From: Nannocystis pusilla
GTDB taxonomy: Bacteria > Myxococcota_A > Polyangia > Nannocystales > Nannocystaceae
Reading direction: 5' to 3' (one strand)
Assembly: GCF_049060185.1 (NCBI RefSeq)
Contig: NZ_JBMEQO010000002.1
DNA: 64,000 bases
Numbering within the stretch: position 1 is the stretch's first letter; the number at the start of each line of letters is the position of its first letter. A program made the position numbers and the translations under genes. Below the pieces are notes generated by a model. That model saw nothing but the letters and a program-made list of their open reading frames with translations, did no database searches and was not told where the DNA came from. Shown here piece by piece: positions 1-64,000 of the stretch.

Positions 1-353
1 GCCGCGTCGAAGATGCCGCGCGGAGGACGGGGCGATGCGGAGCTACCGATGGTGCGTGGGCGTAACTCTGGTGATGGCTTGCGGAGGCGCGCCTGGGCCC
101 TCCGAGACCGCGGGAGCGACGGCAGCCACGAGCAGCGGAACGGCCGACGACACGACCTCGAGCACCACCGACGCCACGACCTCGACCGTCACGACCTCGA
201 CCGGCGAGCCCACCACGGCCACGACCACCGACCCCACGAGCACGACCACCGGCGAGCCCTCCACGGCCGGCAGCACCGCCGATCCCACGAGCACGACCAC
301 CGGCAGGCCGCTGGGCCCGTGCGACGGCCCCGCCCGGGCCCGACAACACGGGG

Positions 354-1037
354 GTGCCGCCGGGCGTGCGCCTCGTGCCGAGCGGCTCGATCACCGTCGA
401 CGAGGACGGCGCGGTGGTCGAGGGCCTCGACATCGAGGGCACGATCACCGTGCTGGCCGACGATGTCACGATCCGCCACGTACGGATCCGCACCGACGAC
501 TACTACCCGATCCGCTACTTCGACGAGGGCAACGTCGGTCTCGTGGTCGAGGACAGCGAGATCGAGGGCCTGTCGGGCAACGCCACCGCGGCGATCTCGT
601 TCGCCCACTACACCGCGCGCCGGCTGAACATCCACGGCACTGCCGACGGCTTCAAGGCCGACAGCGACGTCCTGATCGAGGACTGCTGGGTCCACGACCT
701 GTCCAACGGGCCAGACGAGCACAACGACGGCGTGCAGTCGACCGGCGGCGCCGGCGTCACCCTGCGCCACAACGACATCTCCGGGGCCAGCAACGCCGCC
801 GTGCAGACCGGCGACCTCAATGGTGCCACCATCGACCTCACCCTCGAGTGCAACTGGTTCGACGGCGGCGGCTGGACCCTCAACATCCGCGGCACCGGCG
901 AGACCGTGCCGATGGGCACCAAGATCCTCCACAACCGCTTCGGCCGCGGCCACGGCTACGGCCCGTGGACCCTCGACGACCCGGACCCGATCATCGAGGG
1001 CAACGTCTACGACGACGACGACTCGCCGATCCCGTGA
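354..1037 (+). CDS. Secreted right-handed beta-helix (pectate-lyase-like) protein. A likely N-terminal lipoprotein signal plus Thr-rich linker is encoded in another frame from position 35 (apparent frameshift near 300-350).
   Basis: The translation shows the parallel beta-helix repeat pattern (IEG, NATAAIS, HDLSNGPDEHNDGVQS, LRHNDISGASNAAVQTG). Upstream ORF 35.. begins MRSYRWCVGVTLVMACGG followed by a T/S-rich linker, then changes frame into this ORF. Confidence 0.55.
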   Translation: MPPGVRLVPSGSITVDEDGAVVEGLDIEGTITVLADDVTIRHVRIRTDDYYPIRYFDEGNVGLVVEDSEIEGLSGNATAAISFAHYTARRLNIHGTADGFKADSDVLIEDCWVHDLSNGPDEHNDGVQSTGGAGVTLRHNDISGASNAAVQTGDLNGATIDLTLECNWFDGGGWTLNIRGTGETVPMGTKILHNRFGRGHGYGPWTLDDPDPIIEGNVYDDDDSPIP

Positions 1038-1047
1038 GCCGTGCGGC

Positions 1048-2337
1048 TCACTTGTTGAGGCGGAACATCCCCGACTGGCTCGCGGGGCGCAGCTTGGCCA
1101 GCAGCGGCTCGACCTCGCGGCTCAGGGCCTGCTCGTCGGCCTTGCCGATCGACGCGCCGCACGACAGCAGGGCGAACGCCACGTAGTCGTACATCATCTC
1201 GCGGACCAGCACCTCGGGCTCGCCGCCGAGGGCGCGGCAGGTCTGGCTGGCGTTGCGGTCGATCATCTGCCCGTTGAAGCCGCCGTGCTCGAACGGACCT
1301 GCCCCGCGGAACAGGTCGTCGTAGGAGCCGCGGGCGAACCCGGCCATCGCGTTGCGGAACACGGTGCCGCGGCCGGCCATGTCGGCGCGCTGGTGGATCG
1401 CCCGCAGCGCCGTGTTGGCCAGCTCGACCGCCTCGGCCGCCCCGCCGCGCAGCCGCGGCGGCAGGATGATCACGTGCTGCGACTGCGTCAGCTGGAACAG
1501 CATCTCCGTGACCTGGAACTCGCCGAGCCCGGTCGAGCGGCCGAGCGCCTCGACGCTCTGGGCCCCGTCGATCGCGTTCCACAGCGGCATCACCTCGTTG
1601 CCCGGCGCCAGCGCGCCCGGCCGCTTCTTCGGGATGTACTGCGACGACGGGATCCACGGGCGGAAGTAGCGGATGCCGTCGAGGCGCACGATCAGGTGCA
1701 TCAGCAACGACGTCGCGCTGTGGACCTGGCGGAACGGCAGGCGCGAGTCTTCGTAGCCGTCGAGGAACGCGTAAAGGCCGTCGTCGGCCATCAGCACCGA
1801 GAACACGACCTCCTCGACCTGGCGCCCGAGCAGGCTCAGCACCTGCTCCTCGGTGAGGGCGCCCATCGCCACCGCGGCCACGCCGAACCGCTCGCCGGTC
1901 TTGCGGGCCCGGATCAGCACGTCGCCGAGGACCTCCTCGTGGACCACGCCGAAGCGGTAGGCGATGTTGCCGAGCAGCTCGTCGCCGGCGTCCGACTGCA
2001 CGCCGACGATCGAGCCGTGCTCGAAGAACAGGCTGCGCGAGTGCTCCGAGTCCTGCACCACCAGCTCGCCGCGCCAGCCGACCTGGGCCAGCAGGGCGAT
2101 CACGTCGGCCATCGCCCCCGGCCCCGTGATCTCGCCGGCGATCCGGACCACCGCGCCGTCCTCCCGGTCGCGCCGGCCGTCGGCGCCGACGTAGCGCATG
2201 AACACCAGGTGCCGCGGGGACGGCATGATCCGGAACGCGCCTTCGCGGGTGCGCATCCGCTGCGTGGCGACCTCGCCCAGCGGATGCGCCGCCCCCGTCC
2301 CGTCGATCCAGACCAGCTCGTCCTGCGCGTGCTTCAT
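1048..2337 (-). CDS. Hypothetical cytoplasmic protein (about 430 aa). The likely start is MKHAQDELVWIDGTG.
   Basis: The long ORF has protein-like composition in a single frame. The opposite-strand ORFs across it are Arg/Ala-rich artefacts. Confidence 0.5.
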   Translation of the reverse strand: MKHAQDELVWIDGTGAAHPLGEVATQRMRTREGAFRIMPSPRHLVFMRYVGADGRRDREDGAVVRIAGEITGPGAMADVIALLAQVGWRGELVVQDSEHSRSLFFEHGSIVGVQSDAGDELLGNIAYRFGVVHEEVLGDVLIRARKTGERFGVAAVAMGALTEEQVLSLLGRQVEEVVFSVLMADDGLYAFLDGYEDSRLPFRQVHSATSLLMHLIVRLDGIRYFRPWIPSSQYIPKKRPGALAPGNEVMPLWNAIDGAQSVEALGRSTGLGEFQVTEMLFQLTQSQHVIILPPRLRGGAAEAVELANTALRAIHQRADMAGRGTVFRNAMAGFARGSYDDLFRGAGPFEHGGFNGQMIDRNASQTCRALGGEPEVLVREMMYDYVAFALLSCGASIGKADEQALSREVEPLLAKLRPASQSGMFRLNK

Positions 2338-63275: not shown

Positions 63276-63898
63276 CGCTGCTGTCCCTCGCCGGTGACGG
63301 CGTCGATCAGCGCGTCGGCGTCGCTGTCGGAGAATTCTTCCTTGAAGGTCGGGTTCGGGGTCTGCTCTTTGCGCTCCCAGGTGCGCACGTCGGGCCCGTA
63401 GCGGACGCGGGCCCGCTCGGGCGGGACGCCCTCGATGCGGGCCTGGCCGTTGGCGTCGAGCTTGCCCTTGAGGATCGTGCCGTCGCGCAGCTCGACCTCG
63501 TACTCGGCCTCCTGCACCGGATCGTCGTCGTGGTAGCGGTGGTCGAGGATCAGCGTGGTGTTGCGCTGCTTCTCGCACTCCTCGCAGAACGGCTTGTCGG
63601 TGCGCAGCGCCTCGACCTGGGCCGACGAGCCGATGATCACGGTCGGGCAGCCGACGACGATCGTGCCGCCGTGGGTGGTCGGGTCGCCGAGGCGCGCGGC
63701 CGGCTTGTTGCCGATGATCACCGAAGGCTCGCCGCGGGCGACGCTGTCGGGGCCGGTCGCGCACACCAGCTTGTCGCCCTCGCGCGCGGCCGGCATCATG
63801 CCGATGAGCACCGAGGTCTCGCCGACGACCACCGGGCCGCCGACGTGGGTCGGCACCGGGCACACGTGCATGTCAGTGATGCGGGCTGCGGGCGGCAT
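63272..63898 (-). CDS. PAAR-domain protein (T6SS spike tip) with a C-terminal extension.
   Basis: AAGGA RBS. MPPAARITDMHVCPVPTHVGGPVVVGETSVLIGMMPAAREGDKLVCATGPDSVARGEPSVIIGNKPAARLGDPTTHGGTIVVGCPTVIIG carries three PAAR-type repeats (prePAAR-like AARxxDxH at the N-terminus). Confidence 0.75.
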   Translation of the reverse strand: MPPAARITDMHVCPVPTHVGGPVVVGETSVLIGMMPAAREGDKLVCATGPDSVARGEPSVIIGNKPAARLGDPTTHGGTIVVGCPTVIIGSSAQVEALRTDKPFCEECEKQRNTTLILDHRYHDDDPVQEAEYEVELRDGTILKGKLDANGQARIEGVPPERARVRYGPDVRTWERKEQTPNPTFKEEFSDSDADALIDAVTGEGQQR

Positions 63899-63913
63899 GA
63901 CGTGTCCTTCGGG

Positions 63914-64000
63914 TCAGATGCCGCCGCTGTCGGCCGGGTCGGGTTTGGTCGGCTCGACCGGCTTGGCCTCGTCGGGGTTCAGCGGGCCGGCGGCCGTGCC
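63914..64000 (-). CDS. 3' end of an upstream gene that runs off the window (possibly the VgrG partner of the PAAR cassette).
   Basis: Open frame ...GTAAGPLNPDEAKPVEPTKPDPADSGGI* ending 15 bp before the PAAR RBS. Confidence 0.3.
   Translation of the reverse strand, partial: GTAAGPLNPDEAKPVEPTKPDPADSGGI

Follow-up and report, generated by a model that had tools for sequence, protein, structure and literature searches.

Frame breaks across a 64-kb stretch of the Nannocystis sp. MIELM assembly very probably reflect nanopore consensus errors

Across the 64,000-nucleotide stretch of Nannocystis DNA analyzed here (the window), comparison with relatives identified about 44 window-specific, frame-breaking indels of one or two bases, which disrupt 26 of approximately 50 genes. 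It is very probable, judging from the sequence comparisons set out below, that these breaks, with few exceptions, arose as consensus errors in an assembly built from nanopore data only; the organism itself almost certainly carries the affected genes intact. The window belongs to Nannocystis sp. MIELM of the N. pusilla group (assembly ASM4906018v1; 12,694,743-bp contig, which is the N50 contig; 72% G+C), and its proteins exactly match the N. pusilla entries MFY0532478/479/483/488/491/504/509. An earlier note had claimed from the letters alone that single-base indels split more than 25 genes; the count of disrupted genes agrees with this, and all 13 of the genes that it named as examples were confirmed by alignment to relatives.

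Frame breaks were traced along a codon-usage Viterbi path over the window, which replaced a GC3 frame plot that proved too noisy for strand calling. This path contains about 35 gapless same-strand frame switches, past which the codon-usage signal carries on in the shifted frame, and Pfam profile coordinates likewise run on across the junctions (DUF4291, DJ-1, Transgly_assoc, Aminotran_1_2, Pkinase, and GMC). In DNA alignments with Nannocystis relatives that are 94–96% identical, each junction corresponds to a one- or two-base gap in the window, and the genes concerned are single intact ORFs in the relatives. Only one close relative covers positions 947–11475, 36299–48183, and 53558–64000, where the direction of an indel rests on that relative's intact ORF; the genome L040, at 82–92% identity, is too divergent for reliable indel calls beyond conserved parts. 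The disrupted genes, with changes given as bases lost (−) or gained (+) in the window, are as follows.

4396..5776, minus strand: Porin_O_P-like gene with a Pfam Porin_O_P match in the window; −1 at 4437, 5541, and 5578, +1 at 5586 (versus L042, whose ortholog is an intact 473-aa ORF).
5786..6780, minus strand: SGL-like beta-propeller gene; −1 at 6442 in a G run; L042 ortholog intact, 329 aa.
6789..7898, minus strand: HTH_3 + PBP_like regulator; −1 at 7763 in a G5 run, so that the HTH N-terminus and the PBP domain are split.
10077..12176, plus strand: 700-aa hypothetical protein; −1 at 10167 (C5 run) and −1 at 10787 (C run); orthologs 699–700 aa.
12548..12903, plus strand (ends estimated from the ortholog): ArsR-family regulator; −1 at 12808 (TT to T); L042 ortholog intact, 119 aa.
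13583..14178, plus strand: DUF4291 gene; −1 at 13813 (CCC to CC); Pfam 1–72 and 73–180 in two frames; gap versus L042, L001, L002, and L005.
14230..14820, minus strand: DJ-1/PfpI gene; −2 at 14465 (GGGGGG to GGGG), −1 at 14647; three pieces, Pfam 2–37, 41–104, and 104–164.
15837..17265, plus strand: triacylglycerol lipase; −2 at 16662, one GC unit lost from (GC)n; orthologs 480–483 aa.
17267..19078, plus strand: 604-aa kinase-like protein; +2 at 17893, −2 at 18510 (G4C5 to G3C4).
19145..19416, minus strand: GlsB/YeaQ (Transgly_assoc) gene; −1 at 19230 in a C run; Transgly_assoc profile 2–25 and 29–47 in two frames.
19858..21109, minus strand: class I/II aminotransferase; −1 at 20007 (C5 run) and −1 at 20630 (C4 run); Aminotran_1_2 profile 2–141 and 146–338; gaps versus five of five relatives.
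21131..22752, minus strand: asparagine synthase B (AsnB); −1 at 21416 (TTTT to TTT), moving the final ~95 residues to a different frame; ortholog above the NCBIfam AsnB equivalog cut-off.
23251..24548, plus strand: KamA-like radical SAM gene; −1 at 23682.
24672..26289, minus strand: GMC oxidoreductase; −1 at 25177 (AAA to AA) and −1 at 26076 (G5 to G4); three pieces, GMC FAD N-terminus, GMC_oxred_N, and GMC_oxred_C.
28640..29781, minus strand: Ser/Thr kinase 1; −1 at ~29508; Pkinase profile 1–84 and 98–253.
30700..33436 (start approximate), plus strand: major-vault-protein (MVP)-like gene; −1 at 30752 and −1 at 30771 in the N-terminal region; further pair at 31677 (−1) and 31730 (−2, CG repeat), after which the frame is restored.
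33987..34902, plus strand: 335-aa hypothetical protein; −2 at 34146, −1 at 34527 (C run); L039 is the sole covering relative.
40117..42474, plus strand: Ser/Thr kinase 2 with TPR repeats; −2 at 40826 ((CG)n repeat), −1 at 41409, extra small gaps at 40174, 40211, and 42066; Pkinase profile 2–136 and 137–207; intact orthologs of 820 aa and 759 aa.
45788..46865, plus strand: BNR/Ycf48-like gene; −1 at 45954; covered by one relative.
47093..47833, plus strand: 237-aa membrane protein; −1 at 47789 (C6 run) and −1 at 47821, each close to the 3' end.
48079..49575, minus strand: S1 (trypsin-like) protease; −2 at 49259 (C6 to C4) and −1 at 49272, 13 bp apart; additional −1 at 49558 (G5 to G4), cutting off the signal peptide; orthologs 496–498 aa.
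49720..51053, plus strand: pectin acetylesterase (PAE) family gene; −1 at ~50039 in a G run, parting the lipoprotein signal from the catalytic portion.
54927..56554, minus strand: HEAT-repeat protein; −1 at 55517, 55763, 56104, and 56205; ortholog intact, 540 aa.
56745..57396, plus strand: 214-aa hypothetical protein; −1 at 56919 (C6 run), +2 at 57381.
57396..58126, plus strand: 245-aa hypothetical protein; −1 at 57625 (G5 run).
60992..61872, minus strand: Imm71/Imm72-like immunity protein; −1 at 61022, near the 3' end.

Two base-level corrections proposed in the earlier note were exact: relatives carry CATTATTGGG at 12808, where the window reads CATTATGGG (ArsR), and CTCCCGCG at 13813, where it reads CTCCGCG (DUF4291). 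The compensating pair that it described in the MVP-like gene is present as 31677/31730, with a spacing of 53 bp instead of the 60 given there. As for gene identity, the KamA label holds only for a distant family member, the ortholog matching TIGR00238 at E = 2e-36, under the curated cut-off.

Several candidate breaks were rejected or left out of the count. The same-strand switches at 60926, 61889, and 63277 are overlapping gene boundaries within a module of PAAR, toxin, immunity, and DUF4123 genes, and the switch at 38756–38846 is a gene start; neither involves a frameshift. The differences at 39075, 39748/39755, 39769/39774, 41954, 42019, 42257, 42418, and 43431 were assigned to the sister strain UBH4 (L039), because the window state is supported either by L040 or by an open ORF in the window itself. 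A difference at 27095, seen against L001 alone, was ambiguous and was not counted. Real compensation was also rejected as a general account of −2/−1 pairing, as the members of most pairs are separated by 180–620 bp, a stretch that contains a stop codon or a garbled domain; with about one event per gene, the observed pairing is therefore expected by chance.

Over 58,786 aligned columns, the indels are strongly directional: the window is shorter than its relatives at 106 one-base gaps and longer at 30, and shorter at 21 two-base gaps and longer at 11. The frequency of one-base loss rises from 0.1% of runs of length 1 through 0.2% (length 2), 1.1% (3), 3.9% (4), and 26% (5) to 31% at lengths of at least 6, and the two-base losses that were inspected fall mostly in G6/C6 runs, one G4C5 junction, and (GC)n repeats. 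The earlier note had placed several losses in short homopolymer or dinucleotide runs and had proposed plotting frameshifts against run length; that context was confirmed, and is here quantified as a loss rate that climbs steeply with length. Within the intact ORFs of relatives, 11 of 32 runs of length 5 and all five runs of at least 6 are shortened in the window and none is lengthened; outside ORFs, shortening affects 11 of 20 and the single longer run, respectively. Lengthened runs of at least 4 bases were absent from the window in comparison with its relatives. In control comparisons, the PacBio genomes L001 and L005 differ by symmetric one-base gaps (24 versus 21), with none in runs of at least 5, and L039 and L041 differ by 0 versus 1; in pairs that involve the nanopore assembly L002, the latter tends to be shorter, with two gaps against L001 in 5-base runs. 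Judged by the comparisons between PacBio genomes, the window's indel load is far above chance, with missing bases at about 1 per kb and excess one-base losses at about 1.3 per kb.

These patterns very probably stem from a basecaller and consensus step that under-counts bases in homopolymers and short GC/CG repeats and also loses a smaller class of isolated bases. At roughly one site per kb, such under-counting would leave the assembled sequence a base short, or in some cases two, and, since a loss within a gene shifts the reading frame, gene callers would return fragments or chimeric products. We infer that the full-length runs would be present in the reads, or in the real DNA, of MIELM.

The assembly's origin accords with this mechanism. 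Sequencing of MIELM relied exclusively on Oxford Nanopore R10.4.1, with basecalling by Guppy, assembly by Flye, and medaka as the sole correction (PMC12766979), while the genomes of RBIL2, FL3, NCELM, and BB15-2 are PacBio HGAP assemblies (PMC10435759). The genes that are split in the window are intact ORFs in all four of the latter, and the comparison with close Nannocystis genomes that the earlier note had suggested thus returned intact orthologs. A second nanopore assembly, Na p29 (ONT R9.4.1 Flongle), carries coding frameshifts of its own at 23491, 24208, 24532, 29303, and 29477. On the assemblies compared, the defect tracks sequencing platform and not phylogeny. UBH4 comes from the same laboratory, and one common nanopore method is given for all isolates (PMC12766979); it has far fewer frame breaks than the window, and 11,265 CDSs are annotated in its 12.21 Mb versus 14,925 in the 12.73 Mb of MIELM. 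As UBH4 is much cleaner under the same described method, platform alone does not account for the density of breaks; we assume that low coverage or the library kit lies behind it, with the basecaller model as a further candidate.

A hypermutator, for example through a mismatch-repair defect, could generate very recent but real slippage indels in homopolymers, and dependence on run length is also a signature of replication slippage. Slippage, however, yields gains as well as losses, whereas window runs of at least 4 show losses only. Purifying selection should also thin events in coding sequence, yet loss rates at length-5 runs are of the same order in coding and non-coding DNA (34% versus 55%). 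Two exact compressions, at 18510 and 26076, are moreover common to the window and the independent nanopore assembly of another strain, Na p29, and we regard a hypermutator as very improbable.

Widespread real pseudogenization, in which the frameshifts are true mutations, is equally improbable. The deposited sequence does carry the indels, and slippage has natural hotspots in homopolymers. Nevertheless, the 16,348 frame-corrected codons of the window contain no in-frame stop despite 2,290 substitutions in the compared region, and the lesions are exclusively indels of one or two bases; the mixture of inactivating lesions looked for in the window, comprising nonsense changes and larger deletions or insertions, was not found. 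Nor do the split genes show relaxed selection: their pN/pS is 0.27, versus 0.26 for intact genes, a comparison of limited power if inactivation was very recent, and amino-acid identity to relatives is 96.5% for the split and 96.6% for the intact genes. Pseudogenization is further opposed by the 106:30 excess of losses over gains with no lengthening of runs of at least 4, by the shortening of every coding run of at least 6, by the presence of a housekeeping-type asparagine synthase B among the genes hit, and by the intact PacBio sister strains. Decay would also have to extend to about half of the genes, yet MIELM has a 12.7-Mb genome and is a free-living isolate grown in culture.

Programmed ribosomal frameshifting or transcriptional slippage, by which the genes would still be expressed across the breaks, is more improbable still, to the point of being negligible. 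Nothing specific favors it, although some of the runs could slip in principle. Between five and seven further genomes of Nannocystis encode the same proteins in a single frame; neither a conserved shift site nor a two-frame architecture was found in the orthologs, which are single intact ORFs. The sites have no motif in common, and −1 and −2 changes both occur, up to four per gene.

Of a different standing is the proposal that, scattered among the errors, a smaller share of the indels represents true variation between strains—non-homopolymer, intergenic, or in close frame-restoring pairs—which we consider somewhat likelier to be true than false. One-base gaps also separate the relatives from one another, mostly outside runs and in intergenic DNA, and 30 sites carry an extra base in the window. 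Of the 106 one-base losses, 33 lie outside homopolymers; many of these are intergenic and may be real strain differences. On the other side, the PacBio relatives are essentially devoid of uncompensated differences inside ORFs that are not multiples of three, which leaves error as the best reading of most coding events in the window. In principle, true compensated changes might underlie the close pairs 49259/49272, which alters only about four codons, and 31677/31730. It is nonetheless unlikely that a small subset of the frame changes is real biology in MIELM, the candidates being these two pairs, as truly compensated frameshifts, and the one-base losses outside homopolymers at 14647, 31677, 45954, 49272, and 55517, which might reflect a DNA-modification motif at which basecalling goes wrong. 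For the breaks as a whole, the reading as sequencing or assembly error, which the earlier note had already favored, is strongly supported at the level of sequence by the source of the assembly, the direction of the indels, their dependence on run length, the platform, and the lack of a decay signal.

The biological importance of these breaks is nil. Their practical consequence is that about half of the genes in the window are mis-annotated and that the CDS count of MIELM is inflated by about a quarter relative to its sister strain. Faulty products are already deposited in GenBank, RefSeq, and UniRef, as the following cases illustrate.

AsnB, MFY0532488.1: chimeric 543-aa product with a false C-terminus.
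S1 protease, MFY0532509.1: 456 aa, without the signal peptide.
Lipase, MFY0532483.1: 185-aa fragment.
700-aa hypothetical protein (10077..12176), MFY0532478.1: 454-aa fragment.

Analyses of pan-genomes, biosynthetic gene clusters, or pseudogenes built on the MIELM assembly would inherit these errors, and the Na p29 type-strain assembly carries the same risk to a lesser degree.

Among known systems, the window resembles the errors of ONT-only bacterial assemblies in its deletion bias, its steep rise in loss rate with run length, the involvement of short GC repeats, the similar impact on coding and non-coding DNA, and the inflated CDS count; it departs from typical R10.4.1 error in its high density (about 1.3 excess losses per kb) and in the location of about a third of the losses outside homopolymers. 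Reductive decay with many true pseudogenes is found in Mycobacterium leprae and in recently host-restricted bacteria. A large share of interrupted genes is common to the window and such decay; unlike the latter, however, the window lacks nonsense codons and relaxed selection and shows only tiny deletions, and MIELM is a free-living, cultured organism with a very large genome, whose PacBio-sequenced sisters retain intact orthologs. Phase-variable homopolymer and simple-repeat tracts constitute contingency loci, and the window shares with these its changes of frame at short repeats. In contrast to contingency loci, its tracts are 3–6 bases long, occur in all functional classes and in intergenic DNA, and change in one direction.

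We trained a codon-usage model on the long ORFs of the window itself (72% G+C; genus Nannocystis, a myxobacterium) and traced a Viterbi path through the six frames, which recovered ~35 same-strand frame switches whose segments abut without a gap. Because overlapping neighbor genes leave the same signature, each segment was translated separately and then scanned against Pfam; in many adjoining segment pairs, the profile coordinates run on across the switch.

Pfam matches of successive segments
DUF4291: profile positions 1-72, then 73-180 of 180
DJ-1/PfpI: profile positions 2-37, 41-104, and 104-164
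Transgly_assoc (GlsB/YeaQ): profile positions 2-25, then 29-47
Aminotran_1_2: profile positions 2-141, then 146-338
Pkinase, first kinase: profile positions 1-84, then 98-253
Pkinase, second kinase: profile positions 2-136, then 137-207
GMC oxidoreductase: FAD-binding N-terminus, GMC_oxred_N, and GMC_oxred_C in three frames

The frame change of the ArsR C-terminus was located at CATTATGGG. Switches at 60926, 61889, and 63277 were rejected as frameshifts, as they are ordinary gene boundaries. The region 60051-64000 (minus strand) resembles a type VI secretion effector module, whose few-base gene overlaps produce frameshift look-alikes in the frame plot.

Genes of the module at 60051-64000
window edge, minus strand: end of a VgrG gene
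63275-63886, minus strand: PAAR protein
61872-63278, minus strand: putative toxin of 467 aa
60992-61872, minus strand: Imm71/Imm72-like immunity protein
60051-60926, minus strand: DUF4123 adaptor with an FHA-like N-terminus

Using the asparagine synthase fragment as a query, we retrieved syntenic loci with 96% DNA identity from Nannocystis sp. RBIL2 (L001) and N. pusilla Na p29 (L002); the locus of N. punicea FL3 (L005) is 90-92% identical to the window. Further syntenic DNA was retrieved via homologous proteins from N. pusilla UBH4 (L039), JAIRAU01 (L040), and GCA_049337375.1 (L041 and L042). Jointly, these loci span 947-64000 except ~32.6-34.0 kb, which is partially covered by the more divergent JAIRAU01 only, and 35.1-36.3 kb; the identity of the covering relatives to the window is 94-96%. 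DNA alignment placed a 1- or 2-base gap in the window at every frame junction, and gene calls and ORF cores recovered each split gene as one intact ORF in the relatives. Programmed frameshifting at the breaks fails as an explanation because these orthologs are single ORFs. The gene-by-gene tally comprises 26 genes with about 44 window-specific frame-breaking indels, bearing out an earlier note that, from the sequence alone, had described single-base indels splitting more than 25 genes. Every gene example named there was recovered, and both corrections it predicted are exact, the relatives having CATTATTGGG at 12808 and CTCCCGCG at 13813. The compensating pair it reported in the MVP-like gene also exists (−1 at 31677 and −2 at 31730), at a spacing of 53 bp and not 60.

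This MVP-like gene (~30700-33436, plus strand) encodes a ~900-aa protein with major-vault-protein Vault_3 repeat and MVP_shoulder domains and a long coiled-coil tail; it is conserved, and its counterparts in other Nannocystis genomes are unbroken (906 aa in JAIRAU01). At 36308-40087 (minus strand) lie three tandem paralogous lipoprotein genes, in each of which a Thr/Ser-rich linker is combined with a DUF4215 cysteine-rich repeat and a fibrinogen-C-like domain; three copies are likewise present in UBH4 and two in JAIRAU01. At the position corresponding to window 35053-35687, UBH4 (L039 1154-2746) encodes a 530-aa SNIPE/T5orf172 (GIY-YIG-like nuclease) protein that the window lacks, its place being taken by a cysteine-rich ORF at 35100-35606.

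Indels between the window and its relatives were counted over 58,786 aligned columns, among which there were 2,290 substitutions. The window was shorter at 106 and longer at 30 one-base indel sites, and shorter at 21 and longer at 11 two-base sites; the two-base losses that we inspected fell mostly in G6/C6 runs, a G4C5 junction, or (GC)n repeats. The chance of a one-base-shorter run in the window climbs with the length of the relative's run.

Runs one base shorter in the window, by run length in the relative
length 1: 0.1%
length 2: 0.2%
length 3: 1.1%
length 4: 3.9%
length 5: 26%
length 6 or more: 31%

Between RBIL2 and FL3, both PacBio genomes, one-base gaps were symmetric (24 vs 21), and no run of 5 or more contained one; the UBH4-L041 pair gave 0 vs 1. 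In pairs involving the nanopore assembly of Na p29, the latter tended to be the shorter partner, with two gaps against RBIL2 in runs of 5. That change in the window runs one way speaks against real pseudogenization, in which the frameshifts would be true gene decay, and equally against a hypermutator lineage accumulating real indels. A minority of the indels may nonetheless be real strain differences, the candidates being indels outside runs, intergenic indels, and close frame-restoring pairs. Three one-base losses cluster in a stretch of under 100 bp in the intergenic region upstream of the lipase gene (15730, 15784, and 15825), each in a short C run and seen against all three covering relatives. 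In-gene one-base losses outside homopolymers occur at 14647, 29508, 31677, 45954, 49272, and 55517, in contexts such as GCA[C]AGG, CAA[G]AAC, and GGC[A]GAA, with no obvious motif common to the six; modified bases might have led to basecalling errors at these sites, or the differences might be real.

Inside ORFs intact in the relatives, 11/32 runs of length 5 and 5/5 runs of 6 or more were shorter in the window, and no run of 5 or more was lengthened; outside ORFs, 11/20 and 1/1, respectively, were shortened. Coding sequence is therefore unprotected, which is not expected of real mutations under selection. After frame correction, 16,348 codons contained no in-frame stop. Substitutions are commoner than indels in bacterial mutation spectra, and about 44 real frameshifts alongside zero nonsense mutations are very unlikely. 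The split genes match their orthologs at 96.5% amino-acid identity with a pN/pS of 0.27, compared with 96.6% and 0.26 for intact genes. Both the unspared coding runs and the lack of nonsense codons weigh further against gene decay and hypermutation.

The defect is also tied to the sequencing platform, on which these two explanations finally fail. The source assembly of strain MIELM (ASM4906018v1; 12,731,429 bp, 3 contigs, 14,925 CDS) belongs to a set of isolates for which a single workflow is described: Oxford Nanopore MinION sequencing on R10.4.1 flow cells, Guppy basecalling, Flye assembly, and medaka correction, with no mention of short-read polishing (PMC12766979). RBIL2, FL3, NCELM, and BB15-2 were assembled from PacBio reads with HGAP, and Na p29 from nanopore R9.4.1 Flongle reads with Flye, Racon, and medaka (PMC10435759). 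In the PacBio genomes, every split gene has an intact counterpart. Candidate breaks at window-equivalent 23491, 24208, 24532, 29303, and 29477 were rejected for the window, as they are coding frameshifts of Na p29's own. The shortened state at 18510 (G4C5) and 26076 (G5) is common to the window and Na p29, despite ~4% divergence; compression of the same runs in two independent nanopore assemblies is a prediction of systematic error.

Candidates at 39075, 42019, 42257, 42418, and 43431 were likewise rejected, as they are frame-changing differences of UBH4 (CP185339, a 'complete' genome) and probably residual nanopore errors too; one sits in a PEGA-domain gene, so that the UBH4 product extends over only 80% of its window counterpart. 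UBH4 is far cleaner than MIELM, although one nanopore method is given for all isolates; we assume lower coverage or another kit for MIELM. The CDS counts (14,925 in 12.73 Mb for MIELM vs 11,265 in 12.21 Mb for UBH4; PMC12766979) differ as expected from gene fragmentation.

Seven window proteins have exact GenBank matches (MFY0532478, 479, 483, 488, 491, 504, and 509; 'Nannocystis pusilla'), and garbled products are already public in GenBank, RefSeq, and UniRef.

Deposited products of split genes
AsnB, MFY0532488.1: 543 aa, of which the C-terminal tail is false
S1 protease, MFY0532509.1: 456 aa vs 498 aa proper, signal peptide missing
lipase, MFY0532483.1: 185-aa fragment of 482 aa
700-aa protein, MFY0532478.1: 454-aa fragment

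The Na p29 type-strain assembly carries the 700-aa protein as a 214-aa fragment (MCY1005184.1). Direction, run length, the zero stops, equal pN/pS, and platform support sequencing or assembly error over pseudogenization, as the earlier note had proposed, and the compared sequences strongly support reading the frame breaks as an assembly artifact of a known kind and not as a biological feature.
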